A stretch of 15,522 nt of DNA from Massilia sp. UYP11. GTDB lineage: Bacteria > Pseudomonadota > Gammaproteobacteria > Burkholderiales > Burkholderiaceae_D. The DNA lies in the NCBI RefSeq assembly GCF_050434805.1, contig NZ_JBNDJE010000036.1, positions 1 through 15,522 on the forward strand, given 5' to 3'. The position numbers and the translations under genes were made by a program. Within the stretch, counting starts at the first letter, position 1, and every line of letters begins with the position of its first letter. This document shows positions 1,052 through 14,432 of the stretch, one piece after another. The notes under the pieces are model-generated. The model searched no databases, had not been told where the DNA came from, and saw only the letters and a program-made list of their open reading frames with translations.

Positions 1052-3118
1052 TCACGCGACTTCAATTCCTTCTGCACGTGCCTTACTTAATATCTCTAAC
1101 AAGACCAAGCTCTGTTTTTCCGTAGGAATCTTCTTCGGAATTTGCGTCGCAATGCTAAGAACGCCTGCCTCTTTGGGGGTCACAAGCTGCTTTCTTGAAA
1201 GTACACTGGATAGATGCGCCCATTGCAACGCAGGAATATTAAGTACCTGCTTCTGAGCATCAATGCCGTTATCAATCTTTTGGGTTCTTTTTGCCGATTG
1301 AGCGTCAACGGCGACCTCATCTGCAGAGATGAGTTCCCCCCAGAACTCAGCTGGCAGGCTCGCTTCAATTTCAGGAATCCGCGTCTGAATTCTTGACCAG
1401 CAAGCGTCCTTTTTGCACCACTCTGATATATTGGATACGCCAGCTGTAGGTTGTGTGATGTCATCGTTCACAACCTTCGAGATTGCGCCCAAGGTACTTT
1501 CCAAAACCTTATTAATCCCTTGATTATTCCAAATGCGCAGAAAGTCCAATGCGCTATCTCGACGCCTGCTAATCTCGCTCAGCACGGCAATCGAGTAAGC
1601 AACAACGTTTGCGCGATAACCCCCGTTATACCAAGGCTGTTCAGAAACTAGTTTCTCGGTTGCGCGGAATATCAACCCCCGCGCAATGGCACGTCTATAG
1701 TAAAACTCATTAAAGTCGTCCGAAGATTTTTCCCATTCCTTGCCAATCCTCTGCGCATACTTCGCAAAATTCTTTTGTGCGCCGAGATTGACCCATTTCG
1801 GATGCTCGTCCCACACGTTCTCGAATTTTGCTAAATCGGTTTTGGTGAACATCTGAAATTTTGGATGTGCCGTCTTAAAACGTTTTTGATCGGCCGCAGT
1901 AAGGTTGTTTTGCGCATCGGCATACTGTCCTCTAGCACGCTCATAAAACCATTTCGTTTCCCGAATTGCGCCTGGCAGCGCTGGGGCCCATATGCGCCTC
2001 GAGTATTCCTCGATTCGTATGTGAAAGGGATGATTCGAGAAGAAGTCGGCAGCATTAACCTTGTTCTGGGTATTGGCATATTCCGAAATCTTGGGCACTA
2101 TAATTTCGCTGTCATTACTGTCGATAACAGACAATTTCATCTGAACAAAAATTTGACCAAGCGCAGCCTTATCCCGGCGGCGTGTATGGAAAAGCGATGC
2201 AGTCGTTTGCCCACCGTTCACAATCTGAAGATCAACAATTCTTTTGATCTGCATCCCCGTATCTGCGCTAATCGTCTCGACACTTTGGGCAGTGGCAGTA
2301 ATACCGTTGTTGTACGCAAAAAACATGCTTGGCTCGTTCAATATCGTACTTCGTATGCCTTGATTAACGGAGCCTCGTGCCTGGAGAAATGTCCTTACAT
2401 TCTGTTCGAGAAGCCGTGCCCCAAATCTTTCGTATAAATCGGAAAGAATTTCTGCTGGCATAACGATCAGGTAAGACTGGTAAGCGTTCAATCCTAAATG
2501 AGCGGGCAAACAAGAAATGCCGGCACCGAACATTTCGATGAAATCTAAATTCAGAGCTTCTTTATGTCCGCGAGAGGTTCGTTGCCGGTAGAGGCGCGAG
2601 ATGTCCCATATATGAAAACTTGTCAAGATGCCTGTCGTTTCGCCGTCGGGCAAATCTTGAACCTTGTCGCTAATCGTCCGCTCGGAAACAAGTATCACAT
2701 TGATTTTGCGAATTAAATCTTTTCGATCAACGATTTGCCTAGCTAGGCCGTATTCTGGTGACGTGACTTCAAGCTCGCTCGCTAGGTTCTTATTCACGCT
2801 AGCTTCAAAGAAATTGGCTACACGTTTAAATGCAGCCTCTAAGTCGGTCTTTGTAAGGGTCTGCAGTTCGTTTCGACAGTCGAAATCCGCTACGAACAGA
2901 TCGAGAGTTCCTTCGTCGTTGAACCAATAGCCGTCTACACGCATTCCACGCTGGGCTCGATAGTGGCAAAACTCAAAACCGTCTACAAATCCAGTTTCAA
3001 TAAACTCCGATGTAACGGCGTCCATGAAAGCTGCAAGTTGGAAAGTGCTCTTTGCTTCAGCATCAATCAATATTTCTCGGCGAAATTCCTCGAAAAATTC
3101 CTCTTTTGAAATCTCCAC
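1052..3118 (-). CDS. AIPR family (abortive-infection phage-resistance type) protein, 688 aa
   Basis: GTG start at 3116-3118 lies 6 nt after a GGAGAGG SD located in the last codons of the upstream gene, whose TAA stop (3119-3121) abuts the GTG. I recognise the following as AIPR-family signatures: the N-terminus EEFFEEFRREILIDAEA...MRVDGYWFNDEGTLDLFVADF, and the central FFAYNNGITATA and IVNGGQTTASL blocks. Confidence 0.85.
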   Translation of the reverse strand: MEISKEEFFEEFRREILIDAEAKSTFQLAAFMDAVTSEFIETGFVDGFEFCHYRAQRGMRVDGYWFNDEGTLDLFVADFDCRNELQTLTKTDLEAAFKRVANFFEASVNKNLASELEVTSPEYGLARQIVDRKDLIRKINVILVSERTISDKVQDLPDGETTGILTSFHIWDISRLYRQRTSRGHKEALNLDFIEMFGAGISCLPAHLGLNAYQSYLIVMPAEILSDLYERFGARLLEQNVRTFLQARGSVNQGIRSTILNEPSMFFAYNNGITATAQSVETISADTGMQIKRIVDLQIVNGGQTTASLFHTRRRDKAALGQIFVQMKLSVIDSNDSEIIVPKISEYANTQNKVNAADFFSNHPFHIRIEEYSRRIWAPALPGAIRETKWFYERARGQYADAQNNLTAADQKRFKTAHPKFQMFTKTDLAKFENVWDEHPKWVNLGAQKNFAKYAQRIGKEWEKSSDDFNEFYYRRAIARGLIFRATEKLVSEQPWYNGGYRANVVAYSIAVLSEISRRRDSALDFLRIWNNQGINKVLESTLGAISKVVNDDITQPTAGVSNISEWCKKDACWSRIQTRIPEIEASLPAEFWGELISADEVAVDAQSAKRTQKIDNGIDAQKQVLNIPALQWAHLSSVLSRKQLVTPKEAGVLSIATQIPKKIPTEKQSLVLLEILSKARAEGIEVA

Positions 3119-4108
3119 TTATGACCTCTCCAAGATCAGCGAATCTGAACACATGTACGCCTTAATAGATTCAAGTTTAATTTCATAAGAAAGCCGGGTG
3201 ATACCTTGGGGTAGGCCAGATCGCACAAGCTTCGGAAAGCCTTCCAACACTTGATAACACTGAGAGTTGCTCACGACAAATCTGGGGGTGTCATATTCAG
3301 GCAGTGGAATGTAGCCAAAGGAAGATAGTTTTTCTGAAAATGCTTCAAGCGCTTTATCGTCTGTTAACTCCAACTCAATTATCCGGATTATGTCGTTCAA
3401 AGAGTTTGCATGATCGGAATCAGGCATGTCGCTGAGTTTATATATCATCAAAAAAAGATTGCTGGACAGTGTCTCAAGCTGATCTTCAGACGAAATCCTT
3501 ACGCTGTTGCGTTCCCTCCCACTAACTGACTTTATCTCAACAGCGGTATCACCAAAAATAAAGTCTTGATGAACACTGTCAATTCCGCACCAAGCGTCCA
3601 ACGCCGCAATTTCTGATAGGCGCCGGGTATAGAGTGAACGCAGGAACTGAAGCTCTGCAAACAAGCCTTGTATCTCTTCAGCCGACAATAGCCTTAGTTT
3701 CCGCCCAGCGAGAAACGCTTTCCAGCGCTTAATATGAACAAGGACGACTGATAGCGCAACGGAGGCATCGGAGACCGGAACAAGACTGGCGATGAGTGTC
3801 TTGCAAAGCCCGAAGAACAAGTCTCGATCTACGTGCTTCTCTAACGTTAGAATAAGACGCTGTTTGAATGGAACCTCACCATTTCGGAGGTCCACGGTAA
3901 TTCCATGCAGAGTTATCACGTCATTACGAAACTGTGTGCTGTGATCCCCATCTAGCTCGATAATTAGAAGGCAGTTACCCTGCACGTTCTTACCCCAAAA
4001 AATAGGAATGGCGGCTGTTCCAGCTACTTTCCGCACATTAAAGTCTGCTTTGGGGCTGCCAATATCGTCCCATGGCGTTTCGCTACTCGTCATAGTCGTC
4101 TTCATCAT
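3119..4108 (-). CDS. PD-(D/E)XK motif protein (DUF4420-like putative nuclease), 329 aa
   Basis: HQDFIFGDTAVEIKSV gives D182-x8-E191-x-K193, a PD-(D/E)XK-type core. The gene's position between the Z1 and AIPR genes matches the recalled cassette layout. The ATGATG start (4103-4108) overlaps the end of the Z1 gene by 26 nt. An alternative ATG ends at 4093. Confidence 0.75.
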   Translation of the reverse strand: MMKTTMTSSETPWDDIGSPKADFNVRKVAGTAAIPIFWGKNVQGNCLLIIELDGDHSTQFRNDVITLHGITVDLRNGEVPFKQRLILTLEKHVDRDLFFGLCKTLIASLVPVSDASVALSVVLVHIKRWKAFLAGRKLRLLSAEEIQGLFAELQFLRSLYTRRLSEIAALDAWCGIDSVHQDFIFGDTAVEIKSVSGRERNSVRISSEDQLETLSSNLFLMIYKLSDMPDSDHANSLNDIIRIIELELTDDKALEAFSEKLSSFGYIPLPEYDTPRFVVSNSQCYQVLEGFPKLVRSGLPQGITRLSYEIKLESIKAYMCSDSLILERS

Positions 4109-6746
4109 CTGGGTCGTCGTTGAGCGATCCAGCCATTTGTTCCAGCCATACCTTATTGGCTACGATCTCAACTTCAGTGCCAAAAAGACCGCCAGGGAAG
4201 CTTACGCCAAACGCTGGAATACGCTGATCAATTGACTCGTTCCCCTTGGGACAGAGAGCGTGCAACATCAGCAATGGTTTGTTCCTAGCAATGCGGAAAT
4301 GATAATCTGCAGGGTTTGCGCTTGTGTTACTCGTATCTTTCGACGCCTCATTTACGGCTTGTGCGAGCTCAGTCTCGCCCAAGCCAAGTGCTTCGTCCCC
4401 TCGACTTGCAACCCTGTAGCCATTTAAACGCCAGCTATCCGTCGTGAAATTCTCAAATTTCCGTTGCTGCGTTCCGAGCCTATAGGTGCTTGCGGCCGAG
4501 GTCGTGTCACCAATCGAAATCAGCAAGACATCACTTAAACCAAATCTGTCAGTAATTGCGGCAAGGTACTGAAGCAACAATGCCTTTTGTAGTTCGAAAC
4601 CCTTGTGAACTTTGAAACGAGTAATAAATTTTTCAATTTCTGACGTGGCGACGTCTTGAATAAACCAACCTTTATCCGTTGCAACAACTTTGCCGCCGAA
4701 GCCTCGCCGCCAAAACTCTTCAATAAGCTCATCATTGAATTGGTTAACTGGCGACTTAGTTGGCAGAAGCGTACTCTCGACAAGCTTCCCAGTAAGATTT
4801 TGTTTTACTATAATTTTTTTGCCACTACGCATTTTATTGGCCGCAGTGATCAGGAGGCTATCCGGATGAGCCTGAACATAAAGACCGAAATCTTTCGGGC
4901 TCATCTTATCCCGGCGCATTCGCGTGATTTGCAGCCTCAGCTCATCGGATGCGTTCGCAATGTATGAATACCAATCAATAGATTCCTGCGGTAAATGCAC
5001 TCGGCAAAGATCTTCAAATCCAAGACGGTACCCAAACCATCGGCCCATTTGCATGAGAGTATCGTACATCTTTGTATTTCGATACATGTAGCTTATGGTG
5101 AGGCCCTCAATCGTTAGGCCTCGGGAAAGGCTGAGCCCGCCAATGGCAACCGCTGTAAGACCGATGCCATCTCTTTCATATTTTTTGTAATCAAGCACCT
5201 CGTCGCTTTTACTGTTTATGACGTATATGCGGAGGTGATCAAATACGCTGTTCAGCGCTTTCTTTACAGTGTGCCATTCAAAGCCGCAGTCTGAGAATTC
5301 CTTATCGAATGCGCTTTTAAGCCCGGTCATGTATTCGTTTTTGTTCGACACCTCCTCGGGCATCATATAGTTAGCCTTGACGGCCTCGCGAATTCTTTTC
5401 TCGCGCAAGCTTACAAAATCCCTAACGACCTTTTGTGTCGCCATAAAACGCGATATGTTAATCAGCATGGAGCAGTGTTTTTTTTCCTGCCCACGCAGAT
5501 TTCGGATCGCCCGCGCTACTATGAATTGATCGAAGGCGGCGTAGAGGCTTGGGGGAAGCTCTAGCAGAGCGTCGTCCTTTTTATGTGAAAAAGGAAGGTA
5601 TTTCTCGCAATCATTTATCGGGCAGAGAATTCTCGCACTTGACTTTTCTTCCAAGAATACTTTTTCAGGCCCGAAGTAAGTGTTTGGCGCGTCAAGCGAG
5701 TAGATGAAATCTCTAGGGAAGAGCTCTTCTCGAACGTCTTCATCGTAGGCTTCAGGGTTAATGAAGATGTTCGCGAATGGGGTGGCGGTGTATCCGACAT
5801 AGCACGACTTTTCGAACAGGCCGAGGATGCGTCGTATCATGGAATTCGTACGTGTCGGACTGACGTCTTCCTTATTCGTATTAATGGAGGCGTTATCAGC
5901 TTCATCGTCGATGAGGAGCATTGGTACGTCTGATATTCGGCCATCACCTTTCGCGTTCAATTCTTTTAACCACTTATGCAGTGCGTCAAGCGTCGTGACA
6001 TTTTTCTTGATTACCAATATTATTGGTTTGCTAAAATCATTAATTTTCCAGCCGCTTTTTGCGGCTGTATTCTTGTTGAAGTCCTCGTTTATGTTGGTAA
6101 GGGTTGCTGGATGCGGAAATTTTCCATATGTCCCTACTCCGATCGGAACCCGGTTTTCAGGGTCGCTAGACCTGCCGATAAAGCCTTCATCGACTCTTTC
6201 TTGCGTTTGCTTTCGGAGGTTATTGTGAATGCCTGCAATTACAATAATGAATTTGTATCCGGCATCAGCAGCCTTCCCAATAACACCCATGTAGTTCGCT
6301 GTCTTACCTGATTGGACGTGGCCGATCACTAGACCTCTACGATTCCAAGATCCATCGCTCGTTGGGTCTTGAAGATGCGAAAGTATCTTCAGGCCAACGT
6401 CGCTCAAAGAGCGGACAAGCGTCGGTTGCCATTTTTCCGAAATAAGATATTTTTCATATGCGTCGGAATACGTCCATTCAATTTCTGTGCGTTTATAGAC
6501 CCACTCGTCGTCATGATTCGCTTCGATATTAACTAGCGACACTCCTGCGCCCATACGTGTGTCTATCGCTACCATTGCTTCTTCGATAGCGCTCCGCAAG
6601 TCGCCTTCATAATCGAATACGACTGCTAATTGCTTTGCTTTGGCCTCGACTTCTTCTTTCGTGGGCGGATCTGACTTTCGGAGAAGCGCAGCGATCAGCG
6701 AACTCACAAAGCCTTTGTCCATCTCCATATGGTTTATCGTATTCAT
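4083..6746 (-). CDS. Z1-domain protein with an SF2 helicase-like P-loop ATPase module, 887 aa
   Basis: Motifs seen: Walker A GHVQSGKTANY, DEAD-like Walker B LLIDDEADNAS, and motif-III-like GYTATPFAN. The C-terminal block GGLSLSRGLTIEGLTISYMYRN...MQMGRWFGYR is one I recognise as the Z1 domain. The protein ends in an acidic tail DDPDDEDDYDE. Its ATG (6744-6746) overlaps the TGA of the upstream gene (ATGA, 6743-6746). Confidence 0.9.
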   Translation of the reverse strand: MNTINHMEMDKGFVSSLIAALLRKSDPPTKEEVEAKAKQLAVVFDYEGDLRSAIEEAMVAIDTRMGAGVSLVNIEANHDDEWVYKRTEIEWTYSDAYEKYLISEKWQPTLVRSLSDVGLKILSHLQDPTSDGSWNRRGLVIGHVQSGKTANYMGVIGKAADAGYKFIIVIAGIHNNLRKQTQERVDEGFIGRSSDPENRVPIGVGTYGKFPHPATLTNINEDFNKNTAAKSGWKINDFSKPIILVIKKNVTTLDALHKWLKELNAKGDGRISDVPMLLIDDEADNASINTNKEDVSPTRTNSMIRRILGLFEKSCYVGYTATPFANIFINPEAYDEDVREELFPRDFIYSLDAPNTYFGPEKVFLEEKSSARILCPINDCEKYLPFSHKKDDALLELPPSLYAAFDQFIVARAIRNLRGQEKKHCSMLINISRFMATQKVVRDFVSLREKRIREAVKANYMMPEEVSNKNEYMTGLKSAFDKEFSDCGFEWHTVKKALNSVFDHLRIYVINSKSDEVLDYKKYERDGIGLTAVAIGGLSLSRGLTIEGLTISYMYRNTKMYDTLMQMGRWFGYRLGFEDLCRVHLPQESIDWYSYIANASDELRLQITRMRRDKMSPKDFGLYVQAHPDSLLITAANKMRSGKKIIVKQNLTGKLVESTLLPTKSPVNQFNDELIEEFWRRGFGGKVVATDKGWFIQDVATSEIEKFITRFKVHKGFELQKALLLQYLAAITDRFGLSDVLLISIGDTTSAASTYRLGTQQRKFENFTTDSWRLNGYRVASRGDEALGLGETELAQAVNEASKDTSNTSANPADYHFRIARNKPLLMLHALCPKGNESIDQRIPAFGVSFPGGLFGTEVEIVANKVWLEQMAGSLNDDPDDEDDYDE

Positions 6747-8221
6747 GCAAAGCTCTCGCGAATGAATTGTTCTGCCAGTTCCATATTGTTCTCGAAAAGT
6801 TTCGTGGATTTCAAAATTTCACGGAATGTTCGCTTGTCCGCTGCGGTACTGCCAGTAATCACTTGCCTTAGAGCTAACAGCCTGTCCATGAATAGATTAT
6901 CGTCAGGTAGGAGCTGCCTTATTTCGCGAGGGTTAGTTGAGTAGTCAGAATAAATCATCTCAATCGGCAAGGCCGTTGCTACCATTTCCATAAGAAGCCT
7001 CAACTGTTGTTTTCCGTCGCTGTCTAGGCGCTCGCCTAGACCCTGTAGAACAGGATGCTCAGAGTTAACTACGTAGCGGACATAGCCGTGGTCCGCGTAG
7101 CGTTCCCAAATCGGTGCAGTATTTTCTTCAAAGAGCTTCTGCCCTCTACCGCGATGTACTCTCGTGCTCCGGGTAGATACTTGGGAAATTATTTGGCGTA
7201 GTCGTTCGCGGACAGGATGGGGAGGGCGTGCACGCGACTTCTTTATATCGATGGTCCATGATTCGTCAAGGCTGTTTGGGAAGTCTATTTGCACCCGAGC
7301 CAGTTTGGTCGACTCTCCCTTAGGTATCAATCTGAACCAATCTCCCCAAGCCATCAGGCGGCCGTTTCGATAGATATAGGCGCCCTGGTTGGAGATAAAA
7401 TCACTTCGGTTTTGATAGAAGTCGTATTCGCGTGTTGATAGCCGGCTGTGGTGGGGAAGAATATATGGCTGCAATTGAACCGCAACTTCTCCGATATAAA
7501 CTACTTCTTGGGGCAAAATTTGAGTTGCAGCGTTATTCCGACAAAATGGGTCGAAAGGCTGTATTGAATGGCCGTTAATGGAAATGGAGATCTTCTTTCG
7601 GCCTTTTAGTTCACCGGATAGATATCGATGAAATACTAGTGAAAGATGCTTTTCTAGTACGTCGAGTTTTTCGTTGACTATTTCGTCACGGCGACCGCCA
7701 ATTTGATCTTCAAGCATGCGATCTAATTCTGCCCAGATTATTACAGTCCCATCCCCCGATAGCATTCTACTTTGAGGAAAATCTGATGTTTCTGTATCGT
7801 CGAGGATGGAAAGAATCCAGTCATCTCGAGCATCGATTTTATCCAAGCTCCACGTGGCGCCGCTGAGGCACGCGTTCTTCGCACTGATTACGGTTAAGGA
7901 ACGGCACTGTGAGAACGAAGCAGTTTTTAGACCGAGACCAAATCTGCCCAAGTCGCGTGGTGATCGTTTCTGTTTCGGATTTGCGGTGCCATGTCGCATT
8001 GCGTCCACGATCTCGTCTTCGTTCATACCCCAACCGTTGTCTACAACCGCGAGTGTTGGCGAAGCTCCTGTAACGTCGCAGACTATGGAAATATCGGTTG
8101 CGTTAGCAGAAATGCTATTGTCGACCAAGTCGGCGACAGCTGTTTCGAGCGAGTACCCTAGGTCTCGCATGGACGCGGAGAGGCAGGCAGCGCTCGGTGG
8201 GAGGTGATGATCGCGAGCCAT
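6743..8221 (-). CDS. GHKL-superfamily ATPase (HATPase_c_3 type, MutL/MORC-like), 492 aa
   Basis: Bergerat-fold motifs in order: N-box DLVDNSISA, G1 box VVDNGWGM and G2 box GRFGLGLKTAS. SD AGGAG (8231-8235, reverse complement) lies 9 nt before the ATG at 8219-8221. I did not see a MutL C-terminal endonuclease motif (DQHAxxExxxxE). Confidence 0.9.
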   Translation of the reverse strand: MARDHHLPPSAACLSASMRDLGYSLETAVADLVDNSISANATDISIVCDVTGASPTLAVVDNGWGMNEDEIVDAMRHGTANPKQKRSPRDLGRFGLGLKTASFSQCRSLTVISAKNACLSGATWSLDKIDARDDWILSILDDTETSDFPQSRMLSGDGTVIIWAELDRMLEDQIGGRRDEIVNEKLDVLEKHLSLVFHRYLSGELKGRKKISISINGHSIQPFDPFCRNNAATQILPQEVVYIGEVAVQLQPYILPHHSRLSTREYDFYQNRSDFISNQGAYIYRNGRLMAWGDWFRLIPKGESTKLARVQIDFPNSLDESWTIDIKKSRARPPHPVRERLRQIISQVSTRSTRVHRGRGQKLFEENTAPIWERYADHGYVRYVVNSEHPVLQGLGERLDSDGKQQLRLLMEMVATALPIEMIYSDYSTNPREIRQLLPDDNLFMDRLLALRQVITGSTAADKRTFREILKSTKLFENNMELAEQFIRESFA

Positions 8222-8294
8222 TTGTTGCCGCTCCTTGTTGACTGTGCACTTCGATGACTGTTTGGGGATTCGGCCCCAATAGTGTTACCAAGCA

Positions 8295-8300
8295 ATTATA
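8295..8300 (-). promoter_or_regulatory. Candidate -10 box (TATAAT on the minus strand) for the four-gene effector operon
   Basis: Plus-strand ATTATA at 8295-8300 is a perfect TATAAT on the coding strand of the operon, 74 nt upstream of the GHKL ATG. The -35 position (TGCCGG) is poor, so this is only a candidate. Confidence 0.25.
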
Positions 8301-8369
8301 CCCGGCATGCAGCCTGTCCGGCAGCATCACTTACATGTCACGGTGAGCGATTTGAATGGGTGACTTGTA

Positions 8370-8457
8370 GAGCGGCCGGAGCGGCAGAGCTGGATCTACT
8401 TGTGTTGCATCGTATGGTCGAGCGGCTCTGCGGCAGGTTGCCAGAGTGAGCCGCTCG
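8370..8457 (-). promoter_or_regulatory. Cluster of GAGCGGC motifs, including a 10-bp-stem hairpin, between the methylase and the effector operon
   Basis: GAGCGGC occurs at 8370-8376, 8379-8385 and 8420-8426, and inverted (GCCGCTC) at 8450-8456. CGAGCGGCTC (8419-8428) pairs perfectly with GAGCCGCTCG (8448-8457). An inner GGCA/TGCC pairing sits in the 19-nt loop. No U-run follows on either strand, so this is not a canonical intrinsic terminator. Confidence 0.45.
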
Positions 8458-8472
8458 GTAAGTGGAGGACAG

Positions 8473-10026
8473 TCAGACAAGGACGTTCTTCACTAAGCTG
8501 GCTATTCGATTCGCTAGTAGTGGGGGGACGGCATTTCCGACCTGATGAAACTGCTCAGTTCGGTTGCCCATAAAGAAGTAGTTGTCAGGAAAAGTTTGCA
8601 ACCGGGCGGCCTCGCGAACAGTCAAGCTACGGCATTGCGTCGCATCGGGGTGGATAAAATAGTGACCGTCTTTAGCGATATGGCTAGTGATAGTTGTAGA
8701 GTGGGCCCCATATCGTTGTACCTTGAACCTGTCAGCGAACTTGCCTGTTTCCCAGTTATCGTGATCGGGGCGCAAGCCAGATAGGTCAAACTGTTGATGC
8801 CCTTTTGGTGAAAAGCCTCGCAGCTCTGCAAACGTTGCGGCGTATGCGTATCTTCGAAGATCGCCTGTCATATGGGCACGTGCCTCATGATTTAGCCATT
8901 TATTCAGATTCGGGTCCAAATACCACTCCCTGAGTTCAAGCGGTAAGACGCTGTCGCCGGCACCAGAAAATCGATTGCTGCCGGTTTCTAAGTTATATTT
9001 AACTCCAAACGCAGACGACAGCAGCGCACAACTTAAGTCTGCGTCACCCTTTGCGTTTGCTTCAGCCGCCAGTGAGCGGAGATGATCGATCACAGTATTT
9101 GCCCATACGGAGCTTGAGTCTTGTTCGCGGGTTAGACTACTCCTGAGGGCTGGAAGGCCACTTAGCACGTCTTCCACAAGGTGAGATGGGACATTCTTGC
9201 TAAGTCGACCTGCCCGCACATTGATGTCGGATCGAATTCCTAAAAGGATTACCCTATGCCTAGCTTGGGGCAGCCCGTGCTCTTCTGCTTTGATTATGAA
9301 GTCCCTTGGGTCAATCGAGCTTACGTCCATTCCCTTTTCGAACGTCGTATCAGTCACTAACGAACAGATTTTATATCCGAAGTTTGATGGCGCCTCCCCA
9401 AGCGCTGCTCCTGGATCACATAGGTCCTTGAGGATGTGATGAAAGATTTTTTCACCATCAACTTTTGCGGAAAGAATTCCTTTAACGTTTTCCATCACGA
9501 AAACAGCGGGGCGACGGCTTCGGATGATTCTCAGGTACTCTTTGTAGAGGAAGTGACGATGATCTTCTTCGGCCTTGTAGCCAGCCTTGCCGAGATTTCG
9601 TGAACGGCCTACCAGCGAATACGCTTGACAAGGTGGGCCACCGATGAGAACACATTCTTCGTCTGCACTTAGGAGACTGTCTAGTATGGCGTCTAGCTCA
9701 TCATTGTCTGACGGCTTGCCAAGCTCGAACTGGCGGGCCTCACGTTGCGCCTCCTCCCAAGCAGCCTCCGTCACGCTGTCGTATGGGGAAGGCGCATCGC
9801 CATTGCAAAAGCGATAGTAGCGACGGGCATCGCGTGGGTTGTGCCTTACACGCCGAAAGTAGCTGCGGAGCGACAGGGTCTTATGAGCGGAGGTTTCCAT
9901 CTCAGCTGATACGATAATCTTGAAAGCCCGACCGTCGTCTAGAGATGAGAAGCCCTCACCTAGGCCGCCAGGTCCTGCAAATAAATCAATAATTGGTATA
10001 GTCATCACGAATACAGTTAGGCGCAC
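8473..10026 (-). CDS. dcm: DNA (cytosine-5)-methyltransferase, 517 aa as drawn
   Basis: Canonical m5C MTase motifs in order: I DLFAGPGGLGEGF, IV GGPPCQAYS, VI FVMENV, VIII QARHRVILLG, IX RSLTVREAARLQTFPDNY and X GNAVPPLLA. The start is uncertain. The choices are GTG at 10024-10026 or ATG at 10003-10005 (MTIPIIDLFAG...), and neither has a good SD. Confidence 0.92.
   Translation of the reverse strand: MRLTVFVMTIPIIDLFAGPGGLGEGFSSLDDGRAFKIIVSAEMETSAHKTLSLRSYFRRVRHNPRDARRYYRFCNGDAPSPYDSVTEAAWEEAQREARQFELGKPSDNDELDAILDSLLSADEECVLIGGPPCQAYSLVGRSRNLGKAGYKAEEDHRHFLYKEYLRIIRSRRPAVFVMENVKGILSAKVDGEKIFHHILKDLCDPGAALGEAPSNFGYKICSLVTDTTFEKGMDVSSIDPRDFIIKAEEHGLPQARHRVILLGIRSDINVRAGRLSKNVPSHLVEDVLSGLPALRSSLTREQDSSSVWANTVIDHLRSLAAEANAKGDADLSCALLSSAFGVKYNLETGSNRFSGAGDSVLPLELREWYLDPNLNKWLNHEARAHMTGDLRRYAYAATFAELRGFSPKGHQQFDLSGLRPDHDNWETGKFADRFKVQRYGAHSTTITSHIAKDGHYFIHPDATQCRSLTVREAARLQTFPDNYFFMGNRTEQFHQVGNAVPPLLANRIASLVKNVLV
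9994..10002 (+). promoter_or_regulatory. Candidate extended -10 element (TGgTATAGT) for vsr, embedded in the 5' end of the methylase gene
   Basis: TGGTATAGT at 9994-10002 fits TGnTATAAT at 8 of 9 positions. It lies about 60 nt upstream of the vsr ATG at 10062. The -35 region is weak (CTGCAA). Confidence 0.3.
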
Positions 10027-10061
10027 TCACCGAGTGGCCTGTTGAAGCAAATTGGGAACAA

Positions 10062-10538
10062 ATGATAGATATTGTAGATAAATTGGTACGATCACGAATG
10101 ATGGCGGCAAATAAAGCTAAAAACACTAAGCCGGAATTGTTGCTCAGACGGTTCTTACATGGGAAGGGCTTTCGCTACAGAATCCACGTTCGCAGCTTAC
10201 CAGGTTCACCCGATTTAGTGTTGGCAAAGTACAACTTAGTGATTTTTGTACACGGCTGTTTCTGGCATCAACATGCCGGATGCCGTTTTGCCACGACTCC
10301 AGACGAGCGGCGTGAGGAGTGGCAGGCGAAATTTGCAGGGACCCTGGCACGAGACGCTCAGCATATTACAGCGTTGCGTCAAGGCGGGTGGCGGGTATTC
10401 TTAATATGGGAGTGCGGCTTGACAAAAGGCCAGGCGGGCCAGTCCTTAGAACGGCTTCCAGAGGCAGTCAGGGACGCCTCTCTGGACTTCATCAGTTGGC
10501 CCGAGCCTGCTGTAGGGTTGAGCAAGCGCTCAACATGA
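10062..10538 (+). CDS. vsr: Very short patch repair endonuclease Vsr, 158 aa
   Basis: The alignment by eye to E. coli Vsr is clear: VDKLVRSRMM (Vsr: HDKATRSKNM), LPGSPDLVL (catalytic Asp context PGRPDFV), IFVHGCFWHQH, WQAKFAGTLARD and GWRVFLIWEC. Confidence 0.9.
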   Translation: MIDIVDKLVRSRMMAANKAKNTKPELLLRRFLHGKGFRYRIHVRSLPGSPDLVLAKYNLVIFVHGCFWHQHAGCRFATTPDERREEWQAKFAGTLARDAQHITALRQGGWRVFLIWECGLTKGQAGQSLERLPEAVRDASLDFISWPEPAVGLSKRST

Positions 10539-10638
10539 AGGGCGAGCCTCGGTTCAGCCGTCATCAGGCGGAACTAACATACACGGGTTGCCGTTGAGTC
10601 GAAACGCATCAGCATGTAGGTAGTGTAGTGTTGCTCTA

Positions 10639-10651
10639 CCCAGTGACATAC
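10639..10651. repeat. Left copy of a 13-bp direct repeat CCC(A/T)GTGACATAC; the right copy is at 11231-11243
   Basis: CCCAGTGACATAC (10639-10651) and CCCTGTGACATAC (11231-11243) match at 12 of 13 positions in direct orientation. They are 592 bp apart and bracket the 147-aa gene plus its upstream region. Confidence 0.5.
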
Positions 10652-10680
10652 CTAGTCGTCCGTTACGTAAGTACTGAATT

Positions 10681-11124
10681 TCACTTATTGGCGAAGCTGG
10701 CGCGCAAGCAGCCGCTTGCAGTGTCAATCTGGGAGTCCAACTCACCGGCGGCTACTGCCGCCTTGAGCATATCGAGCGTAGGGATCAGTTCGGCCATGGT
10801 GCCGACTTCGATTGCGCTCTTGCCCTTCGCAAGCTCAAGAACCTTCGCCCCATACTTTACGATCAGGCAGACCTTGCCGCTGTCTGCGGTAAACCACCAT
10901 GCCTTGATACGTTTAGGAGCCTCCACGCGGCGCACGTCGCCAGTCTCGCGGTCTTTCACTTTCCGGGTGTGCATGGGCGCATAAGTCTTACCTTCCTGTG
11001 CGCCCTTCGCCAGCTCTGTTTGTTCCCAAATTTTCGCAATCAGACGATTACGACGTTTAACAACAGGAGGGATATCAGAAGGACGTTTTGCAGATACCAG
11101 TTTCAGCGAAGTCAGTGTGTTCAT
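10681..11124 (-). CDS. Conserved-looking hypothetical protein, 147 aa
   Basis: ATG at 11122-11124 lies 7 nt after GAGG. The composition is protein-like: a basic N-terminal half (VVKRRNRLIAKIWEQ...) and WWFTADSGKVCLIVKYGAKVLEL in the middle. I recall similar proteins as a DUF family in proteobacterial islands, but I cannot name the family with confidence. Confidence 0.7.
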   Translation of the reverse strand: MNTLTSLKLVSAKRPSDIPPVVKRRNRLIAKIWEQTELAKGAQEGKTYAPMHTRKVKDRETGDVRRVEAPKRIKAWWFTADSGKVCLIVKYGAKVLELAKGKSAIEVGTMAELIPTLDMLKAAVAAGELDSQIDTASGCLRASFANK

Positions 11125-11280
11125 TTGTTTGCCTCATCAGTTAATTAGTACACCAATGATGCAGTCGCGTTATCACCTAATCAACTATTTTTCATAGCTT
11201 TCGAATTGCTCATGTTTAGTGGTGTTTTCGCCCTGTGACATACGGTGCCCTACCTGCGATATATCGGTTTGCTTGCGCAA

Positions 11281-11298
11281 TTTTGTCATAAGACAAAA
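11281..11298. other. Perfect palindrome TTTTGTC-ATAA-GACAAAA
   Basis: 7-bp arms and a 4-nt spacer, read directly from the sequence. It lies in the ORF-less region about 160 bp upstream of the 147-aa gene start. It could be an operator or an RNA hairpin. Confidence 0.4.
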
Positions 11299-11385
11299 AG
11301 TCACGCCGTATCGCAGTGACCTCGCACGACCGCCAAATTTCGCGGTCATTTCTTATACTCTATATCTGGGTAAATTCACTTCTGA

Positions 11386-11411
11386 TTCAGATATCTTTCT
11401 TCATATCTGAA
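11386..11411. other. 9-bp-stem hairpin TTCAGATAT-(8 nt)-ATATCTGAA
   Basis: Perfect inverted repeat read directly from the sequence (11386-11394 / 11403-11411). It is AT-rich and its function is unknown. Confidence 0.45.
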
Positions 11412-11732
11412 TGCAACGCGAAGGGCTGAGCGAGCAGCGAAGACCAGCGTCAGCATTCCCTTGCATCGGAGCGAATAGCGAAGAGGCAAGGTGCCGATAG
11501 GCAAAAAGACGAAGTCGGCAAAGATGACTAACGAATTTAGTCAGAGAAGTGGCTACCCAATTCAATGGGTACTGGAATTTGAATGCGCATATGTTCAGGA
11601 CAAACATCTGTTGCTTGAAGCACCAGAGCATCAACAGCGCATACCGTCTTTGCTTCGCGACAGATGGCTTGCTTGTTTCTGCGTATTGCATATGACGTGG
11701 TTTAGCAGGAAAAAAATTTACTCAAGATTATT

Positions 11733-11754
11733 CTTAACCCTCGCTGTGGTTAAG
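11733..11754 (+). terminator. Terminator-like hairpin CTTAACC-(8 nt)-GGTTAAG followed by ATCATTTTCC
   Basis: Perfect 7-bp stem with a T-rich tail on the plus strand. It sits inside the ORF-less region, so it would terminate an unannotated plus-strand transcript if it is functional. Confidence 0.3.
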
Positions 11755-11806
11755 ATCATTTTCCGCATCATGCAACACCCTCGCTTATCGTATGCCTCGC
11801 TGTTGG
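11738..11806 (+). repeat. Three direct copies of CCTCGCT within 69 bp
   Basis: CCCTCGCTGTGG (11738-11749), CCCTCGCTTATCG (11778-11790) and GCCTCGCTGTTGG (11794-11806), about 390-450 bp upstream of the recombinase gene. Confidence 0.4.
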
Positions 11807-12094
11807 CTCCGCTTAGTCTATGCACCCGGTTTTTACGTGAGTGGTCGTTGCTGCTGTGGTCCCAGTACCGCTAAGTTGTCCTGGCAGCTTTCAGTCGTTG
11901 CGACTGTGGCGCTATTGCGTTATCAGTATCAGTGCCTTATCTAAGGGCAGCCGGCTTTTCTAACGTGTGAGCCTTGTGGAGATCGGTGGTTTGTGGCTGA
12001 TTGTAATCTTGCTCTTGTAACTATATTTAGCTCCATGTGAGGATACAGGAACCAAAGGAAATAGCAATTATCTTTGTTTATTGGCTAAGTCCCT

Positions 12095-12109
12095 GAATCT
12101 TCTAGATTC
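12095..12109. promoter_or_regulatory. Palindrome GAATCT-TCT-AGATTC upstream of the recombinase gene
   Basis: 6-bp arms with a 3-nt spacer, 84 nt upstream of the ATG at 12193. It has the shape of an operator, but no known site was recognised. Confidence 0.3.
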
Positions 12110-12192
12110 TTCTCCCGATTAGTCTTGCGTTGATTTCCCAAACCAAAGAATGCATCCTCCGCTCCGTGGTTTTCTTATATTTTCAGGAGTTG

Positions 12193-12762
12193 ATGATGGC
12201 GCAAGCAAAAACCTTATCGGAAAAAGAGTTGAAGCGCGTGCTTGCGCACATCGCCATCGGTAAGCATGCTGCACGTAACAGGGCGATGTTGCTGATTACA
12301 CATTGGGCAGGTTTGCGAGTAGGGGAGGTAGCTGCGCTGTTGATTGGCGACGTGCTTGCAACTGATGGGTCGATCAAGTCGGAAATTCGATTGTTGCCTG
12401 AACAAACGAAGGGACGCCATGCGCGCACGGTATTTGTTGGGGAGCGTCTTCGCAAGGAGCTGACCGTGTACATCGCCACGCTGAAGAATCCAACACCAGA
12501 GAAGCCACTGTTTTACACCCAGAAGCGGCTTGGTTTCACGGCGAACACAATGTGCCAACACTTCCATTGGCTGTACAAACAAGCCAATATTGATGGAGCC
12601 AGCAGTCATTCCGGACGGCGCACGTTCATTACCAATCTTGCTAATAAGGGCGTCGGGGTGCGCGTGCTGATGGCATTGGCTGGGCACCGGAACATATCGA
12701 CCACCCAGGTGTATATTGACGTTAACGACGAAATGCAACGTGCTGCTGTCGATTTAGTCTAA
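12193..12762 (+). CDS. Small tyrosine recombinase (phage-integrase family catalytic domain only, 189 aa; FimB/FimE-like size and layout)
   Basis: ATGATG at 12193-12198 lies 4 nt after AGGAG (12185-12189). The ORF-track start at 12130 is a TTG without an SD. All catalytic residues are present: Arg-I in WAGLRVGEV, Lys in TKGRHARTV, HSGRRTF (His-x-x-Arg), GHRNISTT (His) and the nucleophile Tyr in TQVYI. Only about 40 aa precede Arg-I, so there is no N-terminal core-binding domain. The N-terminus LSEKELKRVLAHIAIGKHAARNRAMLLI resembles what I recall of FimB (LTHSEIESLLKAANTGPHAARNYCLTLL). Confidence 0.85.
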   Translation: MMAQAKTLSEKELKRVLAHIAIGKHAARNRAMLLITHWAGLRVGEVAALLIGDVLATDGSIKSEIRLLPEQTKGRHARTVFVGERLRKELTVYIATLKNPTPEKPLFYTQKRLGFTANTMCQHFHWLYKQANIDGASSHSGRRTFITNLANKGVGVRVLMALAGHRNISTTQVYIDVNDEMQRAAVDLV

Positions 12763-12872
12763 CTGCGAGTGTCACTTTAACCGACACTTCACAGTTTCTA
12801 TGCTCGCTTCGGACGCGCCGTCAAAATTTCCAAGCGAATGACGTGAAAATGGTCGCGATTGCACTTGGGTTT

Positions 12873-13213
12873 CTAGTGGCTCTGAATAATGTAGTCGCCA
12901 AATTTCAGGGTAAATATCGCGGCGTCGGACGCGACAACTTCTGAAATTACGAAAACGAAAATTCCTTTCGGCGAACGCACCATTTGCCGATACTCGAATT
13001 CGGTTGTAACTTTTATCTCCATTTCGCAATTATCTGCATACTTCCATACTTCCATAATTCGAGAAAATGTGTTTCTCCGATGCAAGTGGGTCCATCAATA
13101 GTGGAAATCAAATTAAATGCAATGGGATCAGGCTCCGTACAAATTCCGTTAACCATGAATTCATAGACGTATTCGCCATTACATGTTCTCCGATATTCTC
13201 TAATAAATCTCAT
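12873..13213 (-). pseudogene. Small AT-rich gene (110 aa when repaired) disrupted by an 8-bp tandem duplication
   Basis: ATG at 13211-13213 lies 7 nt after GGAGAG. The frame runs MRFIREY...GETHFLELWKY, then shifts at the duplicated TATGGAAG and stops at 13013. Deleting one 8-mer joins it in frame to ...ADNCEMEIKVTTEFEYRQMVRSPKGIFVFVISEVVASDAAIFTLKFGDYIIQSH, ending at TAG 12873-12875. This accounts for ORF-track ORFs 13013..13228 and 12873..13085 as two halves of one gene. Confidence 0.55.
13041..13056. repeat. Exact 8-bp tandem duplication CTTCCATA x2 (TATGGAAG x2 on the coding strand)
   Basis: Read directly from the sequence: 13041-13048 equals 13049-13056. A partial third copy (CATA) lies at 13037-13040. 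Confidence 0.95.
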
Positions 13214-13329
13214 TCCGTTTCTCTCCATTTGATTGCATCTATATTTATTTTGGATAGCTAGCTGCCGAATTGGTGTAGGGTGCTGTGCAAAGGCGCGCTG
13301 CGTCGCTGAGGTAGTCGGAAGCGCGGCTA

Positions 13330-13358
13330 TTGGGTTGTCGTCTGAACCGACAACCCAA
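13330..13358 (+). terminator. Strong hairpin with a plus-strand T-tract (rho-independent terminator shape on the plus strand)
   Basis: Perfect 11-bp stem TTGGGTTGTCG / CGACAACCCAA with a 7-nt loop. On the plus strand it is followed by CATTTTCTATTG. On the minus strand it is followed by TAGCCGCGC, with no U-run. It lies 43 nt below the stop of the 343-aa minus-strand gene. Confidence 0.5.
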
Positions 13359-13400
13359 CATTTTCTATTGTTCTGCCGCCGGCTCCTGACCGTCGCCCGG

Positions 13401-14432
13401 TTAGCTCGTCACAGCGGAATTCACCACGGATTTATCTTCGAGCAGATCAGGGTGCAACTCGGTAGGGCAAGAATCTTTCTGCGGTATATAGAACGTTACT
13501 TTTCCATTCCTGCGAGCGATTGCAATTGGTAGCCAGGTACCTTCGCTTGGAATCAATTCCTTCAATTCGTCCGGTGAATGCTCAAAGAGAAAAGACGTTA
13601 GGGGCGTCCATGACGCGGCCAGCGAAGTATCAAACAAGGTCTTCAGGTTGCCTTTGTGCCTATTTTGAGCGCGCTGTTGCTCTGAATTTTTTTGTTCCTG
13701 CTCGCACTCAAAATTATCGATTTCGGTTTTGATTTTGTTAAGACCGCCAAGCTCTCTCACCCAATCCCCGAACGTCTTCTCTGTTTGGTCTTCGTTATGT
13801 GCACGGATAAGAACCTTTGCGTCGGCTGAGGCTTGTCTCCGGTCTGACTGGCGAAAAAGCTTCGAGAGTAGGTGGAACTCAGTGGTTTGTTTGTTGCGAC
13901 CTTTCAAGCCATTAGCTTTACATTGCTCATACAGTTCATCCATAAGTATGCTGCTTACTTCTGGTGTCGTGTCGTCAAAGTACGCTCGCCGAACGCCGAG
14001 GATTTTTGCCAACCCGTTAATAGCTTTTTCTTGGACCTTCCCGTGATATTTGTCTATTGTCTCATCAAGGTTTTTTCCTGAGCTATAAATTTCGCTAAGC
14101 TGTTCTCGAAAAAAGGGGAGGACTTTTTCTTTATCAAAAACTGGGCGGGTAAACGTTGAAGTGGTAGATTGGGTTAGGTTCGTTTGGTGTTTCGGTTGAG
14201 CTTGTTGTTCGGATTGCTGCGCGGATTTTATGCCGCTATTGGATTCAGAAAATGCATCGACATCTACCGTGGTCGTCGCATCAATATGGGCGATTTCGTT
14301 CGAAGCAATCGAACCTGATTGATCCATTTCGCGGAATTTAATAACATTCCATTTATTGAACTGATTCAATTTAGCTATGGATGCGTTATTGTCAATATAA
14401 GACGCATTGATTCTGGTGGTTGTTGTCATCAT
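13401..14432 (-). CDS. Hypothetical protein, 343 aa
   Basis: ATGATG at 14427-14432 is preceded by AAGGA (6 nt spacing). A long ORF with ordinary composition. It has an internal Q/S/T-rich low-complexity linker (SAQQSEQQAQPKHQTNLTQSTTST). I recognise no family motif. Confidence 0.75.
   Translation of the reverse strand: MMTTTTRINASYIDNNASIAKLNQFNKWNVIKFREMDQSGSIASNEIAHIDATTTVDVDAFSESNSGIKSAQQSEQQAQPKHQTNLTQSTTSTFTRPVFDKEKVLPFFREQLSEIYSSGKNLDETIDKYHGKVQEKAINGLAKILGVRRAYFDDTTPEVSSILMDELYEQCKANGLKGRNKQTTEFHLLSKLFRQSDRRQASADAKVLIRAHNEDQTEKTFGDWVRELGGLNKIKTEIDNFECEQEQKNSEQQRAQNRHKGNLKTLFDTSLAASWTPLTSFLFEHSPDELKELIPSEGTWLPIAIARRNGKVTFYIPQKDSCPTELHPDLLEDKSVVNSAVTS

Follow-up and report, generated by a model that had tools for sequence, protein, structure and literature searches.

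The DNA analysed here, hereafter referred to as the window, is the entire 15.5-kb contig NZ_JBNDJE010000036.1 (15,522 nucleotides) of Massilia sp. UYP11, whose genome measures 5.4 Mb. The element under study is a gap of 1,068 bp (11125-12192) that separates a gene of the DUF6641 family from a divergent gene encoding a tyrosine recombinase with the catalytic domain only. Sequence comparison shows the gap to be a slot whose content is exchanged horizontally, flanked by two conserved genes of a mobile genomic island. The window is a further example, with precise boundaries, of an island module about which little is known, and its slot holds a conserved non-coding element of a new type. A preliminary description of the same DNA had proposed that the gap contains a phase-variable invertible element, substrate sites of the recombinase, or a structured RNA. 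The first of these proposals was not borne out, and the other two are plausible for separate parts of the gap.

No credible open reading frame (ORF) was found in the gap, in agreement with the preliminary description, but its count of only three short ORFs was too low: 17 ORFs of at least 30 amino acids (aa) were counted mechanically. The longest of them (127 aa, 11491-11874) is interrupted by 1-nt indels in loci L083 and L097, the two relatives in which its sequence recurs, and none of the gap ORFs had a Pfam match at E ≤ 1. The Rfam covariance-model search that had been recommended as a check was performed over 10400-13500 and gave no match in the gap at E ≤ 1, and neither tRNA nor tmRNA was detected. 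No relative of the gap sequence was found in 400 genomes of the order, where only chance matches of 20-36 nt occurred, in plasmids or phages (blastn), or in viral contigs (43-mer scan), and tblastx against 80 loci also gave nothing.

The boundaries of the slot became apparent from related loci, of which 80 were fetched from species genomes and 80 from metagenomes (160 in total, designated by L numbers). In the closest relatives, L084-L088, whose recombinases are 90-95% identical to that of the window, the DNA matches the window through the DUF6641 gene up to 11191-11195 and again from 12046-12050 on, and unrelated DNA of 1.0-1.5 kb lies between these boundaries. Clustering of 65 slots by DNA similarity revealed many unrelated contents. 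A group of 24 loci holds ORF-poor slot elements; eight of these loci carry the Polynucleobacter-1 RNA (RF01718), always on the recombinase strand, and a further dozen have another conserved element, about 500 nt long, in common. The slots of at least 13 loci, L086 and L087 among them, contain an ORF of 167-217 aa, always on the + (recombinase) strand, and about 460 ORF-free bp after it. Based on its motifs HAVTLT, LHYHC, and GWxxYITKE and on repeated sub-threshold matches to PF23343, this ORF was assigned to an HUH Rep-like nuclease. Other slots hold longer cargo.

The content of the window's own slot recurs only in L083 and L097, two metagenome contigs, and all three copies have the same orientation. 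Its central part, a core of 645 bp, is 87-90% identical among the three sequences in the first half and 94-96% in the second, while third codon positions of the recombinase gene differ by 22-25% in the same sequences. Compared with the synonymous sites of the recombinase gene, conservation of the core is two- to four-fold better, and the core is thus under purifying selection. Single-base indels among the three copies occur at five or more places in the core and break every ORF, which argues that it is not translated. On these comparisons, the core is functional and non-coding, acting either as an RNA or as a cis-acting DNA element. The structured RNA of the preliminary description is plausible for this core, which is ORF-free, under purifying selection, and placed in a slot where relatives carry an Rfam RNA; between RNA and cis-acting DNA, the three near-identical sequences do not decide. 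RF01718 had no match at E ≤ 10 in the whole genome, and a model built from the related loci had none either. In addition, no cross-match was obtained with nhmmer profiles for the two ORF-free types of slot in the relatives or, against all loci, for the window's type. By this measure, the window's element is a third non-coding slot type, unrelated in sequence to the RNA types of the relatives.

A decayed protein-coding gene, named in the preliminary description as an outcome that would overturn its proposals, or functionless filler would account for the gap only with great difficulty. The slot does hold protein genes in many relatives, and its left 160 bp evolve almost freely. Against this stand the conservation of the core relative to synonymous sites and the negative Pfam and tblastx results given above. 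Moreover, a profile of the HUH Rep-like protein found nothing in six frames (best E 0.29), so that the core did not arise by decay of the gene usually found in the slot.

Three local 16-nt direct repeat pairs, 41-56 nt apart, were identified in the core; two of the pairs match at 14 of 16 positions, for which about 0.03 would be expected by chance each at that spacing (an estimate). The motif AGCGA occurs four times in the purine-rich 5' part and TCGCT three times in the pyrimidine-rich 3' part, which gives the core long-range complementarity. A reading of the core as a single-stranded DNA promoter (Frpo-like) was considered and dropped because the DUF6641 gene points away from the putative nick region. 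For a leading region, this orientation of DUF6641 is wrong for transcription from the transferred strand.

Within the gap, family-wide conservation is confined to the stretch of about 145 bp ahead of the recombinase gene, which is 62-71% identical to that of Burkholderiales loci and 91-94% identical to that of close relatives. The first element of this recombinase-side backbone is a hairpin or palindrome, designated HP1, which lies 114 nt ahead of the recombinase ATG and whose outer edge marks the right slot boundary to within 2-4 nt. RNAalifold applied to an alignment of 96 upstream sequences gave no structure, and HP1 was instead defined by column complementarity. All 12 pairs of HP1 were changed on both sides across the 96 non-redundant loci (178 cells). 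The covariation score was reached by none of 500 shuffles, and slid controls fell to a third of it. Mismatched cells were of the G-T type in 55 cases and of the A-C type in 17, and this excess of G-T suggests that the arms pair on the + strand. A corresponding hairpin also occurs in the minimal intergenic regions of three distant loci (L039, L052, and L056), in which only 169-187 bp separate the DUF6641 and recombinase genes. HP1 occurs once in the genome. Its geometry of 12, 6, and 12 nt equals that of the core sites of tyrosine recombinases, such as dif and loxP. Substrate sites of the recombinase, as proposed in the preliminary description, are plausible, but only within 12046-12192, the region opening with the covarying HP1.

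The recombinase is encoded within an ORF spanning 12130-12762, with ATG codons at 12193 and 12196 behind a Shine-Dalgarno (SD) sequence, AGGAG, at 12185-12189. The second ATG is probably the real start, since it lies 6 nt after the SD sequence and most homologues have 188 aa. The protein matched PF00589 with an E value of 3.6e-28 (residues 7-180, 99 bits). Alignment to the XerD and XerA structures covered their catalytic domains only (XerD 109-285 and XerA 139-307), and residues R42, K73, H139, R142, H165, and Y174 mapped onto the catalytic residues of both, so that the full set is intact. About 41 residues precede Arg-I. The query begins at the catalytic domain and only residues 102-307 of the structures were matched, which leaves the protein without an N-terminal core-binding domain. 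The preliminary description was thus accurate both on the complete R-K-H-R-H-Y set in a catalytic-domain-only protein and on its SD sequence and ATG. The R-K-H-R-H/W-Y set in the DNA_BRE_C fold places the protein in the tyrosine recombinase superfamily. It scored well below the cut-offs of narrower families in NCBIfam: 34.3 bits for NF007370 (cut-off 221) and 24.5 bits for NF007371 (cut-off 222), the models for FimB/FimE; 74-85 bits for Xer models, with 85 for XerA (cut-off 220); and 41.7 bits for the integron integrase TIGR02249 (cut-off 265), and no repeated site bounds the slot.

A protein search at E ≤ 0.001 returned 7,336 cluster representatives (90% identity), mostly of 188 aa, with the best matches in Noviherbaspirillum, Herbaspirillum, Massilia, Burkholderia, and Paraburkholderia. 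Such mini recombinases occur in Beta- and Alphaproteobacteria and on plasmids of Legionella, Acinetobacter, Burkholderia, and Piscirickettsia, and those of about 188 aa carry only the annotation "integrase". Relatives of about 40% identity were found on 525 plasmids, including conjugative ones with their own MOBF relaxase, one of which is a Legionella plasmid, and on many plasmids the gene lies beside replication genes. On a plasmid of A. baumannii (L174; NZ_CP039344.1, 27770-36291), a 41%-identical mini recombinase gene and a divergent gene for a RepB initiator are separated by 1.38 kb without annotated gene (locus positions 2606-3985), a geometry like that of the gap in the window.

The pattern GTTGATT-N15-TGCATC occurs three times in the window, where 0.27 matches would be expected; of the three, two stand 33-36 nt ahead of the start codons of the divergent genes, an arrangement that is kept in relatives. 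The same box at both genes suggests common regulation, and by its placement it looks like a shared promoter or operator of the DUF6641 and recombinase genes rather than a recombination pair. The downstream CATCCTC part of the box could pair with the GGAG of the SD sequence in the mRNA.

These boxes bear on the switch of the FimB/FimE type envisaged in the preliminary description, in which the recombinase would flip a promoter-bearing sub-segment of 11125-12190. The recombinase has the size of FimB/FimE, and the boxes at 11158-11185 (-) and 12129-12156 (+) form an imperfect inverted pair around the slot. However, they keep equal distances from both start codons in all relatives, as promoters or operators would, and the slot boundaries lie inside the box pair and not at the boxes. 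No inverted repeat of 12 nt with at most one mismatch was found inside the gap (0.72 expected in shuffles), in line with the preliminary description, which had seen no long inverted repeat flanking a segment. A second site similar to HP1 was found neither at the left boundary nor elsewhere in the genome. The copies in the window, L083, and L097 have one orientation, and 326 of 328 slot-to-slot matches are co-oriented. In favour of a switch, the distant relatives L047 and L051 carry a slot segment of about 450 bp in opposite orientations. This segment (2099-2555 in the slot of L047 and 1534-1930 in that of L051) lies at different positions in the two and is partly Polynucleobacter-1-like; it is the only inverted case among the 328 matches and does not concern the window. 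Together with the low scores of the invertase models, these results weakly refute the switch, which we regard as highly improbable.

The two genes flanking the slot form a recurrent pair. Among the 100 loci whose upstream DNA extends for 2.5 kb or more, DUF6641 was found upstream and divergent of the recombinase gene in 58, and in 22 of the 26 loci with a recombinase at least 70% identical. The two genes lie 169 to 5,568 bp apart (median 1,431), with unrelated contents between them. An integrase of 400-470 aa with weak PF00589 and SAM-like matches is found no more than 6 kb away in 32 of the 80 loci from species genomes and abuts a tRNA gene in several of them (L018, L037, L053, L066, L080, and L081), which assigns the pair to genomic islands that integrate at tRNA genes by means of a separate integrase. 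The AlphaFold2 model of the DUF6641 protein (predicted local distance difference test score, pLDDT, 86) had no informative fold match in the PDB; Foldseek and VIA-align gave only coiled-coil-type matches with Z of about 5.

Table 1. Positions of the features in the window and of slot genes in related loci.
Feature	Position	Strand	Remarks
DUF6641 gene, 147 aa, divergent partner of the mini recombinase	10681..11124	-	PF20346, E 9e-18; phrog_31551
Conserved DUF6641 upstream region, backbone side	11125..11195	-	Similarity to L084-L088 ends at 11191-11195 (blastn, alignments)
Shared box GTTGATT-N15-TGCATC	11158..11185	-	33 nt ahead of the DUF6641 ATG
Fast-evolving left slot part	11196..11355		46-70% identity and large indels among window, L083, and L097
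Terminator-like hairpin in left slot part	11328-11347	+	
Conserved ORF-free core, 645 bp	11356..12000	unsettled, + slightly favoured	87-96% identity (window, L083, L097)
Perfect palindrome, 10-bp arms, 8-nt spacer	11385..11412		Repeat search; close to the core's left end; mostly retained in L083 and L097
Direct repeat pair GAGCGA..AGCGAAGA, 16 nt, 41 nt apart	11428..11484	+	Four AGCGA motifs together; purine-rich stretch
Further direct repeat pairs	11732/11788 and 11844/11894		Repeat search
Short variable stretch, right slot end	12001..12045		Window vs. L083/L097 77-80%; L083 vs. L097 95%
Family-wide conserved recombinase upstream region	12046..12192	+	HP1, GCTAAGT..TGAAT block, shared box, SD sequence
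HP1 hairpin/palindrome, 12-nt arms, 6-nt spacer	12050..12079	+	12050-12061 pairs with 12068-12079
Shared box GTTGATT-N15-TGCATC	12129..12156	+	36 nt ahead of the recombinase ATG
Catalytic-domain-only tyrosine recombinase	12193..12762	+	189 aa, or 188 aa from ATG 12196
HUH Rep-like slot genes	L086:1919-2440, L087:2845-3495, L007:5015-5515, about 10 more loci	+	Motifs HAVTLT, LHYHC, GWxxYITKE

As a tentative interpretation, to which we assign a probability of roughly 40%, the locus would be a module for maintenance or replication of the island. The gap consists of three parts in a row within the conserved backbone of a family of tRNA-integrating islands: the control region of the DUF6641 gene (11125-11195), the slot (11196-12045), whose content is swapped horizontally between otherwise near-identical backbones, and the recombinase's own region (12046-12192), with HP1 in core-site geometry followed by the box shared with DUF6641. 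The 645-bp element may encode a structured non-coding RNA on the + strand or act as a cis element resembling an RNA-primed origin, and would stand in functionally for the HUH Rep-like gene or the Polynucleobacter-1-type RNA in the slots of relatives. The mini recombinase would act on a single HP1 per element, in multimer resolution or other upkeep of the excised circular island, and would not flip a segment. In favour of this module are the single recombinase with one candidate site next to it per element, as known from multimer resolution, the occurrence of either an HUH Rep-like gene or a large non-coding element in the adjoining slot, and the plasmid-borne relatives described above, among them the one facing a RepB gene. 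The comparisons demonstrate the backbone with its slot, the slot boundaries, purifying selection on a non-coding core, and the covariation and single copy of HP1, whereas the RNA nature of the core, its role in replication or maintenance, and the use of HP1 by the recombinase are inferred.

Several observations weigh against a maintenance module of this kind. Concerning the proteins, the recombinase has no core-binding domain with which to recognise HP1, the fold of the DUF6641 protein gives no hint of DNA binding, and the window itself contains no integrase, because the contig ends at 15522. The wobble bias of HP1 comes mostly from two columns and may reflect few events. For the core, fold z-scores against shuffles are modest on both strands (-2.46 on + and -1.92 on -), and RNAalifold gave no usable covariation on either strand with three near-identical sequences. 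A consensus scan of the gap (sigma-70) revealed no promoter or terminator for an RNA, and, as stated above, the core had no Rfam match and no homologue in the 400 genomes of the order, plasmids, phages, or the viral 43-mer scan. There was also no consensus DnaA box (one match with one mismatch), so that an origin at this position would have no classic marks.

The main rival to the maintenance module is a mobilisation function, in which the recombinase would be a MOB_M-type relaxase of an integrative mobilisable island and the ORF-free DNA upstream of it the region of an origin of transfer (oriT). HP1 would then be the hairpin bound by the relaxase, and the conserved GCTAAGT block might be the nick region. 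MobK, MpsA, and TcpM have been described as tyrosine-recombinase-like relaxases without arm- and core-binding domains (PMC8152469). The oriT of pIGRK is located in an ORF-free region of 456 bp just ahead of mobK, which contains inverted repeats, direct repeats, and four AGCGA motifs (PMC8152469), and an essential small RNA is encoded between oriT and mpsA in SGI1 (PMC9299015, PMC6414798). According to a 2026 preprint, MOB_M relaxases are common in chromosomes, lie near an integrase in 96% of cases, and are often annotated as integrases (10.64898/2026.01.13.699239).

The window agrees with these descriptions in several respects. The recombinase is a catalytic domain without arm- and core-binding domains, and its Tyr174 is close in position to the catalytic Y179 of MobK; the four AGCGA motifs on the + strand, the three TCGCT motifs, and the direct repeats of the core would resemble the pIGRK oriT. 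The small RNA of SGI1 and the chromosomal, integrase-adjacent relaxases of the preprint fit as well, and the covarying arms of HP1, the conserved block after it, and the wobble bias are consistent with a single-strand hairpin. On the other hand, the protein is an ordinary PF00589/Xer-like domain (99 bits), whereas MOB_M proteins are described as only distantly related, and its likeness to them is one of description. AGCGA is only a 5-mer, so that the resemblance may be due to chance. Relatives of about 40% identity are encoded on conjugative plasmids in which a MOBF relaxase is already present, and many plasmid relatives sit by replication genes. We consider a MOB_M relaxase unlikely on balance, its standing being lowered by the strong Xer-like PF00589 match and the plasmid contexts.

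Another explanation, which we judge to be distinctly improbable, is that the recombinase itself swaps the slot contents in the manner of integrons or pdif modules, with HP1 as a docking site at the slot edge. This would fit the close coincidence of HP1 with the right slot boundary and the unrelated slot contents among backbones with 90-97% identical recombinases. However, the left boundary lies at the edge of the promoter-type box of DUF6641 and has no motif in common with the right one, and a second HP1-like site is missing there and elsewhere in the genome. The integron-integrase models scored far below cut-off (42 vs. 265 bits), and homologous recombination in the conserved flanks would explain the swapping equally well. 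It is very unlikely, too, that the recombinase, being limited to the catalytic domain and thus devoid of a DNA-recognition domain, uses the large non-coding element just upstream as an RNA guide or scaffold to choose its DNA target, a tyrosine-recombinase counterpart of the bridge-RNA-guided IS110 recombinases. Under such guidance, the slot RNAs (Polynucleobacter-1 type, type B, and the window's type) would be alternative specificity modules.

Along the contig, a defence cassette is followed by the DUF6641 gene, the gap, the recombinase gene, and two genes without Pfam match. Neither the gap nor the DNA around it was found in 40 relatives (genus and order) or, by megablast, in E. coli genomes and plasmids, which identifies the contig as accessory DNA. 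Directly beyond the DUF6641 gene, 1052-10538 encodes a methylase-linked Mza-like cassette with AIPR, DUF4420, Z1, a GHKL ATPase, a C5 methylase, and Vsr (Pfam), and the island backbone in the window carries anti-phage cargo. Downstream of the recombinase gene, 12763-13400 is only 68% identical to L083 and contains short overlapping ORFs on the minus strand. An open-ended ORF of 311 aa at the contig end (14587-15522, +) belongs to a gene triad (F3-F7-F4 genes) that recurs downstream of the mini recombinase in L018, L019, L020, L033, L035, L041, L045, L048, and L051. Its members encode proteins of about 294 aa with a faint bacHORMA_2 match, about 276 aa without assigned function, and about 235 aa (AAA ATPase), and the triad may be another defence or accessory module.

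The mini recombinase and DUF6641 pair around a swappable slot with a single-copy hairpin constitutes a testable module, which bears on how small defence-carrying islands are maintained, replicated, or mobilised. The slot alternates between an HUH nuclease gene and one of several unrelated large ORF-free elements, and it may be asked whether an RNA or a cis element is able to take the place of a Rep-type protein. To this the window adds the third non-coding slot type and precise slot boundaries.

Among known systems, FimB/FimE with fimS resemble the window in recombinase size (about 190-200 aa) and in having non-coding DNA next to the gene, but the window has no inverted repeat pair or second site, one orientation in all three copies of its slot content, and a swappable slot. 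The Polynucleobacter-1 RNA (RF01718; Weinberg et al., 2010, PMC2864571) is found in this slot, with the same strand, in eight related loci, but the window's element had no match to the Rfam model or to profiles derived from these loci. The MOB_M modules MobK/oriT of pIGRK and MpsA-MpsB/oriT/sgm-sRNA of SGI1 are alike in a recombinase-type protein without the usual DNA-binding domains, in a long ORF-free upstream region with inverted and direct repeats, and in an island with a separate integrase; the non-coding RNA encoded between oriT and the gene in SGI1 would likewise be comparable to the window's arrangement. They differ in that the window's protein is strongly PF00589/Xer-like and, with 188-189 aa, shorter (MobK has about 28 kDa, and MpsA exceeds 319 aa), and no MpsB-like gene is present in the window.

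The multimer-resolution systems Cre/loxP of P1, ResD/rfsF of F, and XerCD/dif-cer differ from the window in that its enzyme is devoid of a core-binding domain, its HP1 is a candidate site whose wobble bias suggests single-strand folding, and its DUF6641 partner has no counterpart there. With these systems the window shares a tyrosine recombinase with the full catalytic set and one putative site per element directly beside the gene, HP1 with its inverted arms around a 6-nt spacer; the setting is also alike, the window's system being located on a mobile element with a separate integrase and its relatives lying by plasmid replication genes.

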